Shown: positions 2,505-34,577 of the stretch, one piece after another
Numbering within the stretch: the first letter of the stretch is position 1
How the letters are laid out: each line of letters opens with the position of its first letter
DNA from: an uncultured Gemmatimonadota bacterium
GTDB lineage: Bacteria; JAAXHH01
Reading direction: 5' to 3'
Assembly: GCA_951812955.1 (NCBI GenBank)
Contig: OX638340.1
Location: forward strand, 3,360,001 to 3,424,000
Length of the DNA: 64,000 nt
Translations under genes and position numbers: made by a program
The notes under the pieces: generated by a model
Databases searched by the model: none
What the model saw: the letters and a program-made list of their open reading frames with translations, nothing else
Told to the model about the DNA's origin: nothing

Positions 2505-4802
2505 TCAGGCTTCCGTCCTGCCCTTCAAAGGAGCCGTCCTCCCCTTCAGGCTTCCGGCCCCACGCGTACGAGCGCGTTTCGAGCCGTTGTTGACCCTGAC
2601 CGTTTCACAGGCCTGTTCGTATAATTCCCTCTGAGACTGTAAACGACTACCCGCCTTCTTCACGTACCGGTACGTTCCATCCGACTGCAATTCCCGCGCC
2701 TTCACGTTGTCCTTCAACTGGATTTTCAAATACGCCCACAGTTCCGCCTGGAGCGCACGGTCGACGACCGGGAAGGAAACTTCAACGCGCCGGTTGAGAT
2801 TCCGGTCCATCCAGTCCGCGCTGGAAAAGTAATACTCCGGGTCTCCGTCGTTGTAGAAATAGAAGAGGCGGACGTGTTCGAGAAACCGGTCGACGATGCT
2901 GATGACGCTGATGTTCTCGCTCAGACCCGGAACACCTGGTCTCAGGCAGCATATGCCCCGAATGATCAGCTGAATCTGCACGCCGGCCTGTGACGCCTGG
3001 TACAGCTCGACGATCATGTCCGGGTCGACGAGCGAATTGATCTTGGCGATTATGAGGGCCGGCTGGCCGTTTCGGGCCCGCTCGCTTTCCCTCCGCAGCC
3101 TTTTAACCATGTCCTCCCGCATCGACGTGGGAGAAAGGATGAGGTGGTGAAAGTGCTTGGGCAGCGCGTAACCCGTCAGCAGGTTGAACAACTGCGTTAC
3201 GTCCTCGCCGAATTCCTCCTTGTCCGTGAACAGGCCGAAATCGGCGTATATCCGTGCCGTCTTGTCGTTGTAATTCCCCGTGCCCAGGTGACAGTAGCGG
3301 TGAATTGCGTCGCCTTCGCGGCGCACCACCAGGCAGGCCTTGCAATGGACCTTTATGCCTGGTATGCCGTAGATGACGTGGGCCCCCGCTTCCTCGAGCT
3401 GCCTTGCCCACTGGATGTTCGCCGCCTCGTCGAACCGGGCCTTCAATTCCAGCAGCACCGATACTTCCTTGCCGTTTTCCGCCGCCCGGGTCAGCGCCCG
3501 TGTAATCGGCGAGTTTGCGCTCACTCGGTACAGCGTCATCTTGATGGCGAGCACGCTGGGGTCTTCCGCCGCTTCCGAAACGAAACGGACTACCGCGTTG
3601 AACTGATGGAAGGGGTGGTGCAGCAGGATGTCTTCCTTCTTGATGGCGTCCCATATGGAAGGGGCTCCCTCGAAGGACATCGCCGGCTGGGGCGGGAAGG
3701 GTTCGTCCATGAGATCCGGCCGGTCGATGGCATCGTAGAACTCGATGAGATCGGAAAAGGCGGTGAAACCCTCCGTGGGGTAAAGGTCCTCCTGCTCCAG
3801 TTCCAGTTCGTCCACCAGGATGTCCAGGACGCGGGTGGATAACTCCGGATCGTACTGCAGCCGGACGGCAGCCCCGTTTCGCCGGTTTCTTATGCCCTCC
3901 TCGATGACCGTCAGCAGGTCCTCCGCGCCTTCCTCCTCGTAGTCCACGTCGGCGTCCCGCGTCACGCGGATCGACGCGCAGTTCAGCACCTCGTAGCCGT
4001 TGTAGAACAGGTCGAGGTTCATGAGGATGACGTCCTCCAGCATGAAGAACGCCTGCCGGCCGTTCTCGGACGGTAGTTCGAGGAATCGCGGCATGACGGA
4101 TGTGGGCAGGTGGATGACTGAAAGGTTTGTGTGGGGAAAGACGGACCGCTGGATCTTCCGGATTTCAGCCACCAGGCAGAGCGTGCCGTTGGCCAGGTAG
4201 GGAAAGGGATGTCCCGGGTCTACCGCCAGCGGGGTCACCACGGGCAGTATGGTCTTCCGGAAGTACTCGTCCAGGTAGGCCTTCTGCGAAGGGCTGAGCT
4301 GTTCGGGCTTGAGTATGTCGATGCCCTGCTCGGTGAGCTGCGGGAAGATCTCGTTGATGAACAAGCCGTGCTGCTTGTTGACCAGTTCGTGCATCCTGGC
4401 CGAAAGGGCGGTCATCACCTCTCTGGGACTCAGGCCGTCCGCGGTCCGCGTGGATTGGATCTGCGCATCGATCTGTCTTTTGACGCCGGCGACGCGGATC
4501 ATGAAGAATTCGTCCAGATTGGTACTGAATATGGCCAGGAACTTCACTCGTTCCAGCAGGGGCACCGACGGATCGAGCGCTTCCTCGAGCACCCGCGCGT
4601 TGAACTCCATCCAGCTGAGTTCCCGGTTGAAGAAGTGCTCCGGGCGCCAGTAGTTCGTCACCAGCGGTGCCGTGGACGGCCGGGGCTTTCGGGTGAAGCG
4701 CCGGCCGGCTCGCTTAGAGGCGATGGTTCGAACCGTTGCGGTCCTGGCGTTGTTTCTTTTTGCAGTTGGCATTACCAGGTCACCAGAGATGATTGCGGAC
4801 AT
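2505..4802 (-). CDS. ppk: Polyphosphate kinase 1 (the true start may be an internal codon; N-terminus is ~40 aa longer than E. coli PPK)
   Basis: Canonical PPK1 N-domain NRELSWMEFNARVLEEA...VKFLAIFSTNLDEFFMIRVAG and PLD-like C-domains, along 765 aa. Confidence 0.9.
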   Translation of the reverse strand: MSAIISGDLVMPTAKRNNARTATVRTIASKRAGRRFTRKPRPSTAPLVTNYWRPEHFFNRELSWMEFNARVLEEALDPSVPLLERVKFLAIFSTNLDEFFMIRVAGVKRQIDAQIQSTRTADGLSPREVMTALSARMHELVNKQHGLFINEIFPQLTEQGIDILKPEQLSPSQKAYLDEYFRKTILPVVTPLAVDPGHPFPYLANGTLCLVAEIRKIQRSVFPHTNLSVIHLPTSVMPRFLELPSENGRQAFFMLEDVILMNLDLFYNGYEVLNCASIRVTRDADVDYEEEGAEDLLTVIEEGIRNRRNGAAVRLQYDPELSTRVLDILVDELELEQEDLYPTEGFTAFSDLIEFYDAIDRPDLMDEPFPPQPAMSFEGAPSIWDAIKKEDILLHHPFHQFNAVVRFVSEAAEDPSVLAIKMTLYRVSANSPITRALTRAAENGKEVSVLLELKARFDEAANIQWARQLEEAGAHVIYGIPGIKVHCKACLVVRREGDAIHRYCHLGTGNYNDKTARIYADFGLFTDKEEFGEDVTQLFNLLTGYALPKHFHHLILSPTSMREDMVKRLRRESERARNGQPALIIAKINSLVDPDMIVELYQASQAGVQIQLIIRGICCLRPGVPGLSENISVISIVDRFLEHVRLFYFYNDGDPEYYFSSADWMDRNLNRRVEVSFPVVDRALQAELWAYLKIQLKDNVKARELQSDGTYRYVKKAGSRLQSQRELYEQACETVRVNNGSKRARTRGAGSLKGRTAPLKGRTEA

Positions 4803-13265: not shown

Positions 13266-14693
13266 ATGGGTTCGAAGTGGTCAAAGGATGACGCCTTGAT
13301 CTGGTTGTCCGGGGGGGGTCTGGTCCTCGGCTGCCTGATGGTGGCGGGACTGTTCCTGGTGATCGTCGTACATGGACTGGACCGGTTCTGGCCCCAGGAC
13401 CTGACACGGTACACGCTGCACGACGGCGGGGTTGTCCTGGGCCACGAGGCGTCCCGTGAGGACGTACTTACAACCAACGCCAGGGGTGAGCGTTCTGTGG
13501 CATACCGTTTGAGGATCCGGACCGGTGACCGGGACCGGTATCCGGACGACTACGTCTGGCTGGAGGAAGGCCGCGTCACTTGGCGGGATGTCCCACGCGA
13601 GGCCGTGGTGGTGGAACAGGTTCGGGGCGGGGACTTATTCGGATTCCTGGATTCCTTCGTGGACGATGGCACGGTCGTCGCCCTGGGTTACGATGACGTC
13701 TGGGCACTTTACCAGGAGGGGTACCCGGAACTGGAACGGCTGCGCCGGCAGAGGTCGCTTTCTATCGTCCTGTCTTCGGCGGATGGCCGGCCGAGCACCA
13801 TTTCACTTGCTGACGTCCAGCGGATCTATACGCCAAATGCGATGACGGCGTGGACAAGGATCCGCCACTATATGGCCAGTGCGTGGTCCTACCTGTGGGC
13901 GCCCCCGCGGGACGAAAACCGCCAGGGCGGGGTCTTTCCTGCTGTCTTCGGCACGGCGGCGATGGTCATCCTCATGTCGGTCGTTGTCATGCCCTTCGGC
14001 GTGCTCGCGGCCTTCTACCTGAGAGAATACGGAAAACCGGGTCCGTTCCTGAACGCGGTACGTATCGCCGTAAACAGCCTGGCCGGAGTGCCGTCCATCG
14101 TCTTCGGGGTTTTCGGGCTCGGTTTCTTCGTGTATTTTGTGGGAGGCATCCTGGACCGTCAGTTCTTCCCGGAGGCACTTCCGGGACCGACATTCGGCCG
14201 GGGCGGCATCCTCTGGTGCTCACTGACCCTGGCCTTGCTCACATTGCCCGTGGTCATCGTGGCCGTGGAGGAAGGCCTGGCCGCCGTGCCATCGGGACTC
14301 CGCGAAGCGTCCCATGCCCTGGGTGCGACGCGGTTCGAGACGCTTTGGCGCGTCGTCGTACCCGTGGTGCTGCCATCCATTCTCACGGGTCTGATCCTGT
14401 CCGTGGCGCGGGCGGCCGGTACCGTGGCGCCGCTCATGATCGCCGGGGTCGTCGCCTTTTCTGCCGATTTGCCCGTGGACGGCGAATGGCCGTTCGTGCA
14501 CCTGGATCGCGAGTTCATGCACCTGGGATTTCATATCTTCGACACCGGTTTCAGGCCCGGCGAAGGAGATGCGGCGCTATCCATGGCCTACACTTCCACC
14601 CTGTTGCTGCTGGCCATCGTGGTCGCACTGAACGCGGCGGCGATCGGGCTCAGAAGCCGGTTGAGGAGACACTATTCGCTGGCCGCGCCATAG
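13266..14693 (+). CDS. pstA: Phosphate ABC transporter permease PstA (long form with a large periplasmic insert)
   Basis: C-terminal half matches PstA ([14 protein letters not shown]...[40 protein letters not shown]). Six TM segments. Follows pstC. Confidence 0.85.
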
Positions 14694-14766
14694 GCGTACC
14701 CGGTCCGCGTACGATCCCGATCCGCGGCATACGAGATCCCGGTCCGCTTACAAGAGGTATAATCGC

Positions 14767-15564
14767 ATGACGATGGAAAATGCGCCGTTCACGCCGAAGA
14801 TCATGCGCGAAGAAACAATCATCGATGTCGAGAACGTGTCCTTCTGGTACGGGGACAGGGCCGCGCTGAGGAACGTTTCCATGGCGATCGATCGCCATGT
14901 CATCACGGCCTTCATCGGACCGTCAGGCTGCGGCAAGACGACATTGCTGCGGCTGTTCAACCGCATGAACGACCTGGTTCCCCAGACCCGCATGACGGGA
15001 TCGATCCGGATGAACGGAGCAGACATCTACGGCCCGGATACCGACGTCACGCGTCTGCGCCGGCGCGTGGGCATGGTCTTCCAGCAACCGAATCCCTTTC
15101 CCAAGTCGATCTATGAGAACGTAGCCTATGGCCCCCGAATCCATGGGGTGAAGTCCGGGGAATTTCTCGACGAGATCGTGGAACGGTGCCTGCGAAGGAC
15201 GGTGCTGTGGGACGAGGTTCAGGATCGGCTCGAAGAAAGCGCGCTCAAACTCTCCGCCGGACAACAGCAACGGCTTTGTATCGCGCGGGCGGTCGCCGTC
15301 GAACCGGAAGTCCTGCTCATGGACGAGCCGTGCTCGTCACTGGACCCGGTCGCCACGTCCAGGATCGAGGAATTAATGCTTGATCTGAAGGATGATTACA
15401 CCATTGTTATCGTGACACACAATATGCAGCAGGCAGCGCGTGTGTCGGAATACACCGGGTTCATGCTCAAGGGCGAACTGGTGGAAATGGGTGTGACCGA
15501 CGTGATGTTCACCACGCCGGGGGACCGGCGCACGGAGGATTACATTACGGGTCGTGCGGGATAG
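14767..15564 (+). CDS. pstB: Phosphate ABC transporter ATP-binding protein PstB
   Basis: Walker [10 protein letters not shown], signature [15 protein letters not shown], Walker [12 protein letters not shown], and a PstB-type C-terminus. Confidence 0.92.
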
Positions 15565-28888: not shown

Positions 28889-30277
28889 TCATTTCACGAC
28901 AGGCGAGTCGGCCGACTGGCGTTTTTTCCAGTAAAAATAGAAGGGCAGGCCCACGGCCAGGATCGCGAGTCCAAGCAGCGGCCGCGTAAAATCTGTAATG
29001 AGGGAGTTGGCCAGGACCCCGACGGCGATCAGGAGGAACAGGATCGGTGTTACCGGATACCCCCATACCCGGTATGGCCGGTGCAGGTCCGGTTCCTTCT
29101 TGCGTAAGATCATGAGACCGATCACAGCCAGTGTCAGGAACACGTAGGTGTAGAACATGGCGAAACTGACAATCTCGACGAAAGTGCCGGTCAGTGCGAA
29201 GACCGAAGCCCACAGTCCCTGCATTACAATGGATGCCACCGGGGTCCGGAACCGGGGATGGACGTACTGGCAGACCTTGAAGAAGATCTCGTGGTTGGCC
29301 ATGGCGTGGTAGACCCTGGGAGCTACCATCAACTGGGCGTTGACCGTACCGAATGTGGTCAGCATGATCGCCGCCGAAATGGCCATCGCCCCGGTGGGTC
29401 CTACCAGGGCCTGAAGCGTATCTGCGGCCGGCCGGCGGGACATTTGCAGTTCCTCGAAAGACAGGACGGTCAGGTACACGACATTGGCAAGGATATAGAC
29501 CGTGGCCACGATCGCCAGCGCGGCAAAAATCGCCCGGGGTATGCTCCGTGCCGGGTCCTTGATTTCGGTCGCGATGAACGTCACAAAAAACCACCCGTTG
29601 TAGGCGAACAGCGCCCCCAGGATCGCCAGGCTCAGACCGCCCAGGAGCGCGGTCCCGGTCTCTTCCTGAACAAGCGGGGTCCAGGAGACCTCCGTACCCG
29701 ATGCCAGGGTGAACCCGAGCAGGATGACGGCCAGGACGGCGCCGACCTTGATGAAGGCGAACACGTTTTGAACCGACCCGCCGATCTTGACGCCCAGGCA
29801 GTTGACCACCGTCAGGAAGAGGATGCATCCCACGGCCAGCAACCGTTCAGTCCAGAGGTCTTCGATGGCGAAGAGGCCGCCGGCGTACCGGGCGAAGACG
29901 GTGGCCACCGCGCCCATTGCGCCGGTAATGATGATGAAGAGAAAGGCCCACCCGAAGAGAAAGGCGATCAGGTCCGTGTTGTACGCCCGCCTGAGGAAGG
30001 CGTAGGTTCCCCCGCTCCTCGGTATGGCCGCGCCGAGTTCCGCGTAGCATAGCGCGCCTGCCAGGGCGAGCATGCCGCCGATAATCCACACGAACAGACT
30101 GAGCGAGGGCGAGCCGACCTGGGAGGCCACCGTGCTCGGTACCATGAAGATGCCCGAGCCGATAATCGCTCCGATGATCACCGCCGTACCCGTTTTCGCC
30201 GTCAACACGCGAAGCAGTCTGGGTTGACCAGCCGGCAATATCTCCTCTACGAGTTCGTCGTCATGGGTATGTGACAT
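28889..30277 (-). CDS. APC-family amino acid permease (12 TM)
   Basis: ...TGTAVIIGAIIGSGIFMVPSTVA...GGTYAFLRRAY. Typical APC fold. Confidence 0.75.
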   Translation of the reverse strand: MSHTHDDELVEEILPAGQPRLLRVLTAKTGTAVIIGAIIGSGIFMVPSTVASQVGSPSLSLFVWIIGGMLALAGALCYAELGAAIPRSGGTYAFLRRAYNTDLIAFLFGWAFLFIIITGAMGAVATVFARYAGGLFAIEDLWTERLLAVGCILFLTVVNCLGVKIGGSVQNVFAFIKVGAVLAVILLGFTLASGTEVSWTPLVQEETGTALLGGLSLAILGALFAYNGWFFVTFIATEIKDPARSIPRAIFAALAIVATVYILANVVYLTVLSFEELQMSRRPAADTLQALVGPTGAMAISAAIMLTTFGTVNAQLMVAPRVYHAMANHEIFFKVCQYVHPRFRTPVASIVMQGLWASVFALTGTFVEIVSFAMFYTYVFLTLAVIGLMILRKKEPDLHRPYRVWGYPVTPILFLLIAVGVLANSLITDFTRPLLGLAILAVGLPFYFYWKKRQSADSPVVK

Positions 30278-31384: not shown

Positions 31385-32920
31385 TCATCCCTTGCCTAGC
31401 TTCGGTACCGGGTGGCGCGCAAGGGCGATGTCGATATTCTTCGTTTCCATGTAGAAATCAAAACTGTAGTCGCCCCCGTCCCGCCCGATCCCGCTCGACT
31501 TCATGCCGCCGAAGGGCGTGGGGAGATGGCGCACGTTTTCGGAGTTCACCCAGACCATGCCGGCTTCGAGCCGCCGGGCAAAGTCATGGGCGCGGGTGAC
31601 GTCGCTCGTCCACAGGTAGGCGGCCAGGCCGTAATCGACGTCGTTGGCGATGTCCAGCGCTTCCGCTTCCGTGTCGAAGGGGATGGCGGTGAGAAAGGGC
31701 CCGAAAACCTCTTCACGGGCGATGCGCATGGACCGCTCGGCGTCACCGAAGAGCGTGGCCTCGAAATAGTTCCCGGAGCCGGCGTTCTCCGGGCATCCTC
31801 CACCGGCGATCAGCGTTGCGCCTTCTTCCTTTCCAGCGGACACGTAGCCTAGGACCTTCTCGAGGTGCAACGGGTGGATCAGGGGACCCAGTTCGGTGGC
31901 CGGGTCGAAGGGGTTTCCCAGGCGGATGCGCTTCACGCGCTCCGCGAGCCGGCCGGCGAAATCATCGTAGACCGTCCGCTCCACCAGCACGCGGCTGCCC
32001 GACGTGCACCGTTCCCCGTTCAGGCTGTAGATCATGAATACCGTGGCGTCCAGGGCCCGGTCCAGATCCGCGTCGGCGAAGACGACCACCGGGTTCTTGC
32101 CGCCCAGTTCGAAGTGCACCCGCTTGAGCGTATCCGCGCCCTGCCGCATGATGGCGCGGCCGGTCCGCGTGTCGCCCACGAATCCGACGGCCTTGATGTC
32201 CGGGTGCTCGGTGAGCGCCCGACCCGTGGTTTCGCCGATCCCGTTGACCACGTTGACCACACCCGCCGGCACGCCGGCCTCATGGACCAGTTCGGCCAGC
32301 CGCATGGCCGTGACCGGGCTCCACTCCGCAGGTTTGTGTACCACCGTGCAGCCGGCCGCCAGCGCGGGCGCCATCTTCCAGGTGCTGAGCATGAAGGGCG
32401 TGTTCCAGGGCGTGATGATGCCCACGGGCCCGATGGGCTGCCTCAGGGTGTAGTTCAGGTGCCCGGCCGTTGGAAGCGCGAGCCCGTCCGATGCGCTCTC
32501 GGCGCGGTCCGCGAAGAACCGGAAGTTCTCGGCGGCGCGCGACGCGGCCTTGGACATGAAACGGATAGGCTGGCCCGTATCATAGGTTTCCAGCAGGGCG
32601 ATCTCTTCGCCGTGTTCCTCGATCAGGTCGGCGACCCGGTGCAGCAGCCGTTTTCGTTCCGTCCCCGGGGTGTCCCGCCAGTCTTCGAAAGCCTCCGTTG
32701 CCGCACGGGCCGCGGTGTCGATCACCTCCGGTCCACCGTTCGCGACGGTGCACAGGAAGGAATTGTCGACCGGCGTGGCGTTCTCTAAGGATGCGCCTCC
32801 TGCGGCTGGGACGGAGGAACCGCCGATGAGATGGCCGATGCCCTGTTCGCGGAACCGGGCGATGTGCCGCTCCGCTTTCGCCTGGTTCGGATGATTCGCC
32901 GTGGCCTGGATTGCTATGAT
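31385..32920 (-). CDS. 5-carboxymethyl-2-hydroxymuconate-semialdehyde dehydrogenase-like ALDH (HpaE-like); start codon unresolved (no in-frame ATG/GTG/TTG near the conserved N-terminus)
   Basis: Alignable end-to-end with E. coli HpaE (ours ...ARHPVPKLGKG vs HpaE ...DHPIPKWGV; catalytic ...FELGGKNP..., ...GERCTSGSR...). Conserved N-terminus ...IGHLIGGSSV begins about 32860. Strong SD AAGGAGG lies at 32931-32925. Confidence 0.75.
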   Translation of the reverse strand: MIAIQATANHPNQAKAERHIARFREQGIGHLIGGSSVPAAGGASLENATPVDNSFLCTVANGGPEVIDTAARAATEAFEDWRDTPGTERKRLLHRVADLIEEHGEEIALLETYDTGQPIRFMSKAASRAAENFRFFADRAESASDGLALPTAGHLNYTLRQPIGPVGIITPWNTPFMLSTWKMAPALAAGCTVVHKPAEWSPVTAMRLAELVHEAGVPAGVVNVVNGIGETTGRALTEHPDIKAVGFVGDTRTGRAIMRQGADTLKRVHFELGGKNPVVVFADADLDRALDATVFMIYSLNGERCTSGSRVLVERTVYDDFAGRLAERVKRIRLGNPFDPATELGPLIHPLHLEKVLGYVSAGKEEGATLIAGGGCPENAGSGNYFEATLFGDAERSMRIAREEVFGPFLTAIPFDTEAEALDIANDVDYGLAAYLWTSDVTRAHDFARRLEAGMVWVNSENVRHLPTPFGGMKSSGIGRDGGDYSFDFYMETKNIDIALARHPVPKLGKG

Positions 32921-33669
32921 GCATCCTCCTTCAGACCGTCCACCACGTCGTTTTGCAGTGCGCCCAGGCCGTCCACCTCCAGCCGGAGCCGGTCCCCCGC
33001 GTGGATGTGGGAAATGCCCTCCGGCGTACCCGACCAGATCATGTCCCCTGGGCTCAGGGTCATGTACGCGGTGATGTACTCGATGAGTTCGGCCACGCTG
33101 TGGCGCAGGTCGCCCGACCAGCCCTCCTGGCGGAGTTCGCCGTTGACGTAAGTACGCAGGTGAACGTCCGTGGGATCGATTTCGTCCGCGGTGGTCAGGA
33201 AGGGACCCAGGGGACCGAAGGTGTCGAAACCCTTGGCCTTGATCGGCGGCCTGAAATAGTTGCTCACGAAGTCCCGTATCGTCAGGTCGTTTCCAATGGT
33301 GTAACCGCCCACGTAGTCCAGGGCGTACTCGGCCTTTACCTTGCGCGCCGGACGGCCGATCACGGCGACAAGTTCGCATTCGTAGTGCAGGTAATCGAAC
33401 TCAGGCGGGACGACGATCTTCGCACGGTGTCCGATGAAGGTCTGGGGCATCTTGTTGAACAGGATGGGCTCTTCGGGCAGGTCCAGGTTCAGTTCCTTCG
33501 CGTGCTCCGTGTATCCCAGCGCGACCCCGATGGCTTTGCTCGTATGGTCCACCGGAGGCAGGAACATGACGTCCTCCGGATCGTAAGCGACCGTGCCCAC
33601 CATGAGCTGTCCGTCTTCGTACACGGCCTCGAGTACCTGGCCGTTACAGGCGAACCGTGCAGTCTTCAT
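32914..33669 (-). CDS. Fumarylacetoacetate hydrolase (FAH)-family protein, HpaG/HpcE-like hydratase/decarboxylase
   Basis: FAH motifs ...HYECELVAVIGR...GYTIGNDLTIRD...GDMIWSGTPEG.... Confidence 0.75.
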   Translation of the reverse strand: MKTARFACNGQVLEAVYEDGQLMVGTVAYDPEDVMFLPPVDHTSKAIGVALGYTEHAKELNLDLPEEPILFNKMPQTFIGHRAKIVVPPEFDYLHYECELVAVIGRPARKVKAEYALDYVGGYTIGNDLTIRDFVSNYFRPPIKAKGFDTFGPLGPFLTTADEIDPTDVHLRTYVNGELRQEGWSGDLRHSVAELIEYITAYMTLSPGDMIWSGTPEGISHIHAGDRLRLEVDGLGALQNDVVDGLKEDAS

Positions 33670-33681
33670 TTATACCCTCCG

Positions 33682-34551
33682 TCACACGTCATACCACGTG
33701 TCCACGCTATGCTCCAGTTCACCCGGCCGGGAATACCGCGTTTCCATGTCCCGTATCGCGCGTTCCACTTCCGTCGCGGCGGGAACGAGATCCCGCTGGC
33801 CGGCCGACAGGTCATAGACCGACCGCCCTTCCGTGGCAAGGGGACTGTCCAGGTCGATCCTCCCCGAGGGCCTGTGCTTGAGCAGGACAGTATAGGTGGC
33901 GCAGTAAAGGTCGGGGTCGTAGGCGCAAGGGGCCGCTTTCCTATTTTCGTCCACCAGGCCGAACCGCGCGGCCACCTCGCACAGGTCTTCCCACAGCGCG
34001 TACATGATGCCGGGTTGGGCGTCGCCTTTCTCCCGCTCGTGCAGGGGGCTGGCGCTCCGCGCCTTGCGTTGCGCCTCGATGAGCTGCCTTACCTGCCGGG
34101 AGGGCGTGGGAATGCCGAAGAAGGTCGATGTCTCGTCCATGAGATGGGATTCGACCGGGTCCGCTTCCCGGCGGACCAGTTCCACCAGCCGGTTGCCGAT
34201 GAGCGGTGTTTCCCCGATGAGGATGTGGCGGTCCTCCCGGTGCCGTTCCGCCCAGTCTCCGACCGCGCGCCGGGCCCACATGCCGACGGCCTTGCGGACC
34301 CCGGCGTGGGTGATTCCGTCCTGTTCGTGATAATGTTCCTTCACCCGGGCGTTTGTCAAGAACGGCAGCCGGCAGACGTCCCATTGGAGCAGGTGGGGCG
34401 TCCTGCCGCGGCCGTAGGCCAGGATGGCCAGTTGCTGCAGCAGCAGGCTCTTGCCGGTGCCCGGGAGTCCGGCCAGAAAAACCATCTTGCGGGTGTCCAC
34501 CAGGCTCCGGAGGGTCTGATACAGTCCGCTGTCCTCGGGAATCAGTAGCAT
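33682..34551 (-). CDS. P-loop NTPase-domain protein (predicted kinase/ATPase), function unknown (start at the ATG at 34551; the long upstream ORF is rejected)
   Basis: Walker A FLAGLPGTGKSLL about 25 aa from the proposed start MLLIPEDSG. Confidence 0.5.
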   Translation of the reverse strand: MLLIPEDSGLYQTLRSLVDTRKMVFLAGLPGTGKSLLLQQLAILAYGRGRTPHLLQWDVCRLPFLTNARVKEHYHEQDGITHAGVRKAVGMWARRAVGDWAERHREDRHILIGETPLIGNRLVELVRREADPVESHLMDETSTFFGIPTPSRQVRQLIEAQRKARSASPLHEREKGDAQPGIMYALWEDLCEVAARFGLVDENRKAAPCAYDPDLYCATYTVLLKHRPSGRIDLDSPLATEGRSVYDLSAGQRDLVPAATEVERAIRDMETRYSRPGELEHSVDTWYDV

Positions 34552-34577
34552 TATCCAGCCGGGTCCGCAGTCTCGGC

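Follow-up and report, generated by a model that had tools for sequence, protein, structure and literature searches.

On contig OX638340.1 of an uncultured Gemmatimonadota bacterium (GenBank assembly GCA_951812955.1), the gene for an HpaE-like aldehyde dehydrogenase follows an hpaG-like gene so closely that the two reading frames overlap, and the question considered here is where translation of hpaE begins. Both genes lie on the minus strand of a stretch of 64,000 nucleotides (contig positions 3,360,001 to 3,424,000), hereafter the window, from whose first letter the coordinates below are counted unless another locus is named.

The upstream gene encodes a 251-residue protein of the FAH family, in which the TIGR02303 model (HpaG-C-term) ends at residue 244. 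The downstream product scores 757.5 bits against TIGR02299 over the whole protein, above the equivalog cutoff of 638.35; model positions 1-488 correspond to HpaE residues 28-510 (numbered from the ATC codon described below), and the model starts at GIGHLIGG. Its best match in the PDB is 2d4e, the HpaE of Thermus thermophilus (E = 1.9e-168). Chain residue 20 of 2d4e pairs with HpaE residue 21 and the alignment runs to the end, so that the two have N-terminal extensions of similar length; a 510-residue product is therefore of the expected length. With the T. thermophilus enzyme and the E. coli-type HpaE (TIGR02299) the window gene shares the enzyme family and the hpa-type neighborhood, having an HpaG-like FAH gene upstream and an HpaD dioxygenase gene (TIGR02295, 381 bits) downstream, and this gene order is kept in the related loci discussed below. 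The features of the junction and its surroundings are the following:

32914..33669, minus strand: hpaG-like FAH-family gene, 251 amino acids (TIGR02303 HpaG-C-term, 282 bits)
32925..32931, minus strand: Shine-Dalgarno (SD) sequence AAGGAGG, inside the 3' end of hpaG
32921..32924, minus strand: variable spacer, including the out-of-frame ATG at 32924-32922
32918..32920, minus strand: in-frame ATC at GGAG-N5; candidate near-cognate start, in place of AUA or alongside it, or else the -3 to -1 context of AUA
32915..32917, minus strand: in-frame ATA at GGAG-N8; proposed initiation codon of hpaE, overlapping the hpaG stop as ATAG (-4 overlap)
32916-32914, minus strand: hpaG (FAH) stop codon TAG
31385..32917, minus strand: hpaE, 5-carboxymethyl-2-hydroxymuconate semialdehyde dehydrogenase, 510 codons from the ATA plus the stop codon
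32726..32914, minus strand: 5' coding segment omitted by every canonical-start model (codons 3-65 from the ATC)
32861..32863, minus strand: internal in-frame ATC (codon 20) with GGAG-N6 upstream; minor rival start
32723..32725, minus strand: GTG, the first in-frame canonical codon (residue 66 from the ATC, at VIDTAARA), 38 residues into the conserved HpaE domain

On the minus strand the junction reads ...ggt ctg AAG GAG Gat gca tca TAG in the FAH frame and ...gga gga tgc ATC ATA gca atc cag... in the hpaE frame, the ribosome-binding site of hpaE being carried by the last five FAH codons (K-E-D-A-S). The original prediction had located the AAGGAGG (32931-32925), the ATG, ATC and ATA codons and the TAG correctly, and the 114-codon open reading frame (ORF) that it described as opening at the out-of-frame ATG is present (32580..32924). 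It had also claimed that hpaE lacks a canonical start. When all in-frame codons were enumerated, no ATG, GTG or TTG was found between 33379, located 153 codons upstream and well inside the FAH gene, and the GTG at 32725, and the claim stands; the added remark that none occurs until about 100 residues in holds for the first ATG (32557, residue 122) but not for the first GTG. Among the approximately 44 likely genes of the window, hpaE alone has no canonical start within reach of its conserved N-terminus. As the sole such case within the window, it lends no support to a genome-wide use of AUH starts (AUA, AUC or AUU).

Conservation among related loci

The comparison covered 15 distinct loci, the window and 14 that were fetched (a further locus, L169, duplicates L001 at the junction). 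They come from metagenome-assembled genomes labelled Gemmatimonadetes or Latescibacterota, with HpaE-clade protein identities of 75-97%, and include complete chromosomes, MEGAHIT, SPAdes and JGI contigs, and one contig of 2.47 Mb with a hifiasm-style ptg name. This last contig is 97.1% identical to the window, has the identical frame arrangement and, to judge from its name, is a hifiasm HiFi assembly. (Sponge hosts are suggested by the record names IrcVar142 and APA_bin_41.)

A single motif, [A/G]AGGAG-N5-A[T/C][C/T]-ATA-[G/A], is common to all 15 loci. In 14 of them the ATA and the FAH stop form a 4-nt overlap, ATAG or ATAA, with ATA taking the place of ATG; L008 instead ends its FAH gene with a TGA that lies 5 nt before the ATA. 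L008 is also the exception to the absence of any canonical in-frame start that would give a complete protein, which holds for the other 14 loci. Its in-frame GTG, two codons upstream, is used by gene callers (P0022, MNIIAFQ) and overlaps the last G of GGAG, and the conserved SD is therefore spaced for the ATT and ATA rather than for this GTG. (Positions 2995-3006 of this low-GC locus read AAGGAGTGAACATTATAG, and the hpaG TGA stop lies in a GTGA overlap.) Thus, with the orthologous loci compared, no conventional upstream start has come to light in 14 of the 15, and the one in L008 overlaps the SD. In a neighbor-joining tree built without the N-terminal columns, the 13 junction-type loci included form one clade, which is sister to a clade that starts with ATG (P0019, P0021, P0023 and P0027). 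The junction-type loci being monophyletic, a single origin is indicated.

How much conservation is to be expected at such a site? Pairwise synonymous divergence (dS) between the window and its relatives ranges from 0.09 to saturation, and the whole-gene ratio of nonsynonymous to synonymous rates (omega) is 0.04-0.21. The synonymous baseline was taken from 13 distinct loci at HpaE columns with an invariant amino acid: third positions were invariant at 2 of 122 fourfold sites, 8 of 96 twofold sites and none of 13 Ile codons. Every aligned locus, even the low-GC L008, has AGGAG unchanged, though two twofold sites of the FAH frame fall within it, and the conservation of ATA and AGGAG across the 15 loci exceeds the neutral expectation. 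Between them lies a hypervariable 5-nt spacer (10 different 5-mers among 14 aligned sequences), followed by an invariant A three bases before the ATA, which is the synonymous third position of an FAH codon (GCA, GGA or GTA), then by T or C, by C or T, and by the invariant ATA. The FAH residues encoded between the SD and the stop are DA, DG, GG, DV, HA, HV, YG, GV, AV or RA. Since this tail varies freely while AGGAG is fixed, what is constrained is the nucleotides, as a ribosome-binding site, rather than the FAH protein. FAH proteins of the sister clade (L082, L170 and L171) are 5-7 residues shorter at the C-terminus, and the stretch by which the window protein exceeds them (32914-32931) coincides exactly with the SD, spacer and start of hpaE. 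From these alignments it looks as if the ribosome-binding site of hpaE was incorporated into hpaG through loss of an intergenic spacer.

The arrangement is also specific. Both strands of about 0.9 Mb of sequence were scanned for a signature consisting, in this order, of an SD, an AT[ACT] codon that overlaps the stop codon ending a long upstream ORF, and a long ORF downstream, giving 14 matches at the hpaG-hpaE junction of the clade and one unrelated match. Being nearly confined to this junction, the signature is more than chance. A metagenome scan with the N-terminal alignment returned, among the matches listed, only distant relatives (at most 67% identity) and nothing on the junction.

Downstream of the junction, the omitted 5' segment has an omega of 0.15-0.46 over codons 3-65 and by this measure is under purifying selection. 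The indels just downstream of the ATA are all multiples of three in the DNA alignment, and an HPN(Q/E) motif in this segment is common to the clade and to the ATG-start proteins of its sister clade. Public gene calls generally miss this segment. The calls inspected (database proteins P0001-P0020, P0121 and P0129) are 5'-truncated by approximately 15-65 residues in the HpaE clade (452-497 amino acids compared with about 507-511), the NCBI entries MYD26630.1 and MYI98787.1 among them; the exception is the L008 lineage, called from the upstream GTG or from further up (511-515 amino acids). Among the 20 closest database proteins, 15 were called at 452-457 and four more at 474-497 amino acids, P0019 of the sister clade (505 amino acids) being the sole full-length entry. 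The calls of 452-457 amino acids share an equivalent internal start codon, located about ten codons before the window GTG, and the place of the first canonical codon differs between lineages, from 9 to 64 codons downstream. (HpaD proteins of 331 amino acids are also found in the 90% cluster of P0001, apparently via cluster chaining.)

The proposal in the original prediction that hpaE starts at a non-canonical AUC or AUA codon at the FAH stop has thus been strengthened, the motif being kept in 15 loci despite saturated synonymous divergence. On the strength of these sequence comparisons, it is very likely that the clade as a whole uses a real, conserved near-cognate AUH start for hpaE at the hpaG stop.

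The initiation codon and competing explanations

Which of the two adjacent codons serves as initiator, a point on which the original prediction did not commit itself, is less certain. The comparison of loci favors AUA and leaves AUC as a lesser possibility. ATA is invariant in all 15 loci, and at the preceding codon 13 loci have ATC, L008 has ATT and L166 has ACC. Because L166 reads ACC-ATA, ATA is the sole near-cognate codon common to every locus. The outgroup locus L170 has a TAG, a 24-nt spacer containing AAAGGA, and then ATG GCC ATA AAG CAG CAC CCG (MAIKQHP), which aligns codon for codon with ATA GCC ATC CGG GAA CAT CCG (IAIREHP) in L006; ATA thus occupies the position homologous to that of the outgroup ATG. 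The residue after the ATA is Ala or Thr, the same as in the outgroup M-A/T. From these alignments AUA, rather than AUC, appears the likelier initiator, with a small remaining probability for use of both codons or of another one. The N-terminal peptide predicted from an AUA start is (M)AIQATANHPNQAK, and that from an AUC start is MIAIQATANHPNQAK. The third Ile codon, the ATC at 32911, was tried as a start and rejected, AGC, AAC or TTC standing there in other loci.

A variant in which AUC (32920-32918) initiates and AUA is the second codon, read as Ile, is possible but distinctly less probable. In its favor, 14 of the 15 loci have ATC or ATT, the A of this codon never varies at what would otherwise be a free synonymous site of the FAH frame, and initiation at AUC has been demonstrated in E. 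coli, giving a protein with N-terminal Met (bioRxiv 10.1101/063800). In genuine window genes the spacing from GGAG to the start is 5-8 nt; 5 nt, as for the ATC, is the commonest and 8 nt, as for the ATA, is also found, so that SD spacing fails to separate the two codons. However, L166, with ACC at this position, keeps an intact and selected gene (omega 0.12), the outgroup ATG pairs with the ATA and not with the ATC, and the codon before the ATC is completely unconstrained; ATC could equally be start-codon context.

Several points weigh against an AUA start. The invariance of ATA is partly confounded, its last two bases lying within the hpaG stop in 14 of the 15 loci. With ATC strongly conserved at the commonest spacing, AUC could serve as the main start or as an additional one. 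Alternatives exist in some lineages, namely the SD-overlapping upstream GTG of L008 and the codon-20 ATG of L085 and L173. Near-cognate starts are, moreover, inefficient in model organisms, and the start is deduced here from sequence comparison and the coupling from geometry.

Explanations that dispense with a near-cognate junction start fare considerably worse. The original prediction offered a sequencing or assembly indel as its alternative, with the ATG at 32924-32922 as the true start and the C at 32921 as spurious, and removal of this C does yield an in-frame MIIAIQ... The same frame arrangement recurs, however, in the 14 other loci, from independent samples and assemblers. The out-of-frame ATG itself is found in four of the 15 loci (the window, L006, L007 and L085), and in 10 of the 14 others ACG, GCG, CCG, GTG or GAA stands in its place. 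The probability of an indel is therefore negligible, and the unconserved ATG, on which the original prediction laid emphasis, was a red herring. Initiation at AUG followed by a +1 frameshift was rejected as well, AUG being absent from most loci. Automatic gene callers assume instead a start at the first downstream canonical codon, here the GTG at 32725, which would give a protein of about 446 amino acids; this accords with the 15 of the 20 best database matches called at 452-457 amino acids. Such a start would cost approximately 38 residues of the conserved HpaE domain in a region that aligns with structure 2d4e, would skip a segment that shows purifying selection and in-frame indels only, and would require the first canonical codon to be placed differently in each lineage. 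The GTG also has no usable SD, GGAG lying at 0 nt from it, and a start there is very improbable.

A programmed -1 frameshift near the end of hpaG would produce an HpaG-HpaE fusion and remove the need for an hpaE start. The hpaE frame is indeed the -1 frame of hpaG and in the window is open for 153 codons upstream, but a long open frame is the expectation at 62% GC, and hpaE-frame stops occur 3 codons upstream of the ATC or ATT in L085 and 12 codons upstream in L008. The remaining stretch, the last hpaG codons, has no slippery heptamer of the form X XXY YYZ. No conserved or unusually stable RNA structure was found at the junction (consensus -6 kcal/mol, z = 0.30), and there is thus no support for either SD sequestration or a frameshift stimulator. 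Fusion-length proteins are absent from the 120 homologues listed. The slippery heptamer, stimulatory structure and open -1 frame of programmed -1 frameshifting are not what is found here; the likeness to prfB- or dnaX-type systems is limited to two overlapping frames with an internal SD, and unlike them hpaG-hpaE has neither slippery site nor stimulatory structure and has in-frame stops just upstream in two loci. A frameshift is accordingly hardly credible. Somewhat less remote, though still improbable, is initiation at the internal ATC at 32863 (codon 20), with the N-terminal peptide MARFREQGIGHLIGG... and the junction ATC-ATA irrelevant. The window reads GCGGAGCGGCAC-ATC at this point, with GGAG six bases upstream of the codon, and L085 and L173 have an ATG at exactly codon 20. 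On the other hand, codon 20 is CTC in L167 and L168 and ATA in L008, L002-L005, L008 and L173 lack the upstream GGAG, and an internal start leaves unexplained both the invariant SD and ATA of the junction and the conserved HPN motif upstream of codon 20, which the ATG-start relatives share.

Mechanism, context and evolution

If the start is at the junction, the strong SD (AAGGAGG) in the last hpaG codons would set the ribosomal P site on AUC-AUA, and AUA (32917-32915), as the most likely initiator, would be read by fMet-tRNA with a mismatch at the third position; we infer that the first residue of HpaE is Met. Because the AUA shares bases with the hpaG stop, as AUAG here and as AUAA in some relatives, an arrangement that would correspond to the common AUGA 4-nt overlap with AUA in place of AUG, ribosomes that have completed hpaG probably reinitiate at it. 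Judging from this geometry, initiation of hpaE is probably coupled to hpaG termination, in addition to any de novo initiation driven by the SD, and the product would be full-length HpaE of about 510 amino acids.

Near-cognate starts of this kind are known from a few genes. In E. coli, infC and pcnB (both AUU) were the sole confirmed non-canonical starts at the time of the preprint, and AUA, AUC and AUU initiate at 1-2% of the level of AUG (bioRxiv 10.1101/063800). In S. aureus, conserved AUA or AUU starts are found in infC, ccpN, citZ (AUA) and cvfC1 (AUU), all of which have extended SDs, and these starts reach approximately 10-30% of AUG (PMC13009471). The AUH-start genes of the two species have a conserved near-cognate codon at normal spacing from a strong SD and no canonical start for a full-length product. 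The same is found in hpaE, in which no canonical codon would give the full-length protein and a strong SD precedes the AUH codon at a distance used by genuine window genes; with its near-cognate codon, strong SD and conservation it fits the known kind as far as its sequence goes. Most genes of the infC, pcnB and ccpN type encode regulators or translation factors (citZ, for citrate synthase, is an exception), and their weak initiation is regulatory, as in the autoregulation of initiation factor 3 (IF3). Unlike these, hpaE is known from its sequence, encodes a catabolic enzyme within an operon, and has its codon overlapping the upstream stop.

Overlaps of 4 nt of the AUGA type, with coupling of termination to reinitiation, have been described (Huber et al. 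2019, PMC6728339; Osterman et al. 2012, PMC3592434; reviewed in PMC12548453), and Osterman et al. give AUGA, UAAUG and UGAUG as the only possible overlaps (PMC3592434). In AUGA-type coupling the start is AUG, whereas in hpaE it would be AUA, giving AUAG or AUAA. The coupling papers searched make no mention of near-cognate, AUA or AUU starts, and a literature search for 'AUA/ATA start codon' returned almost only reports of mitochondrial genomes.

How might such a junction have arisen? The sister-clade HpaE relatives examined, unlike the window gene, start with an ordinary ATG after an intergenic spacer. The junction arrangement looks derived, the sister clade having an ATG at the homologous codon after a spacer of 24-100 nt, and the apparent path leads from an ATG after a spacer, as in the sister clade, to an ATA fused into the end of hpaG and then to canonical codons gained downstream. 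An ATG at codon 20 (window 32863-32861) is found in L085 (163-165) and L173 (1501-1503), which belong to separate parts of the clade, and lineage-specific GTGs are found in L172 (codon 17) and L166 (codon 11). To judge from their distribution, these lineages may each have acquired a canonical start independently, downstream of the weak one.

The surrounding cluster has features of its own. Between a thiamine pyrophosphate (TPP)-dependent enzyme gene and hpaG lies a gene for 290 amino acids (33682-34554, minus strand) with a Walker-A-like motif, GLPGTGKS, and no Pfam family; the related and sister-clade loci have a gene for 289-292 amino acids without a Pfam match at the equivalent position, and it looks like a conserved, uncharacterized member of the hpa-like cluster. 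An amino-acid permease gene (28889-30277) directly follows hpaD in the window. In sister-clade loci an indoleamine 2,3-dioxygenase gene (PF01231) follows hpaD (L082, 5125-6303; L171, 4090-4518), and in L082 it sits between hpaD and an amino-acid permease gene. With its TPP enzyme and permease, the cluster may feed aromatic amino acid catabolism. Elsewhere in the window, the ORF at 14665-15564 (plus strand) has an in-frame ATT at codon 3 after GAGGAG, and its first ATG, with its own AGAGG, is 31 codons later; the combination of ATT and GAGGAG there is probably due to chance.

A stronger interpretation is that AUAG and AUAA constitute a functional, selected class of 4-nt overlap, in which AUA is used mainly or only by terminating ribosomes and the coupling is obligate. 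IF3 would reject AUA in de novo initiation, and post-termination ribosomes held by the SD would accept it. This interpretation is speculative, and we consider it unlikely. If it were true, HpaE output would be locked to HpaG translation, and AUAG or AUAA junctions could be widespread and systematically misannotated as 5'-truncated genes, because gene finders and overlap surveys allow only AUGA, GUGA and UUGA. A near-cognate start at the hpaG-hpaE junction would in any event be one kept over deep divergence, with synonymous sites saturated, in the gene for a catabolic enzyme and not for a translation factor or regulator. A construct based on the AUAG/AUAA junction could be used to ask whether near-cognate starts are better tolerated by ribosomes at termination than by free 30S subunits, and the clade would amount to a small natural experiment in the loss of a start codon and its compensation.

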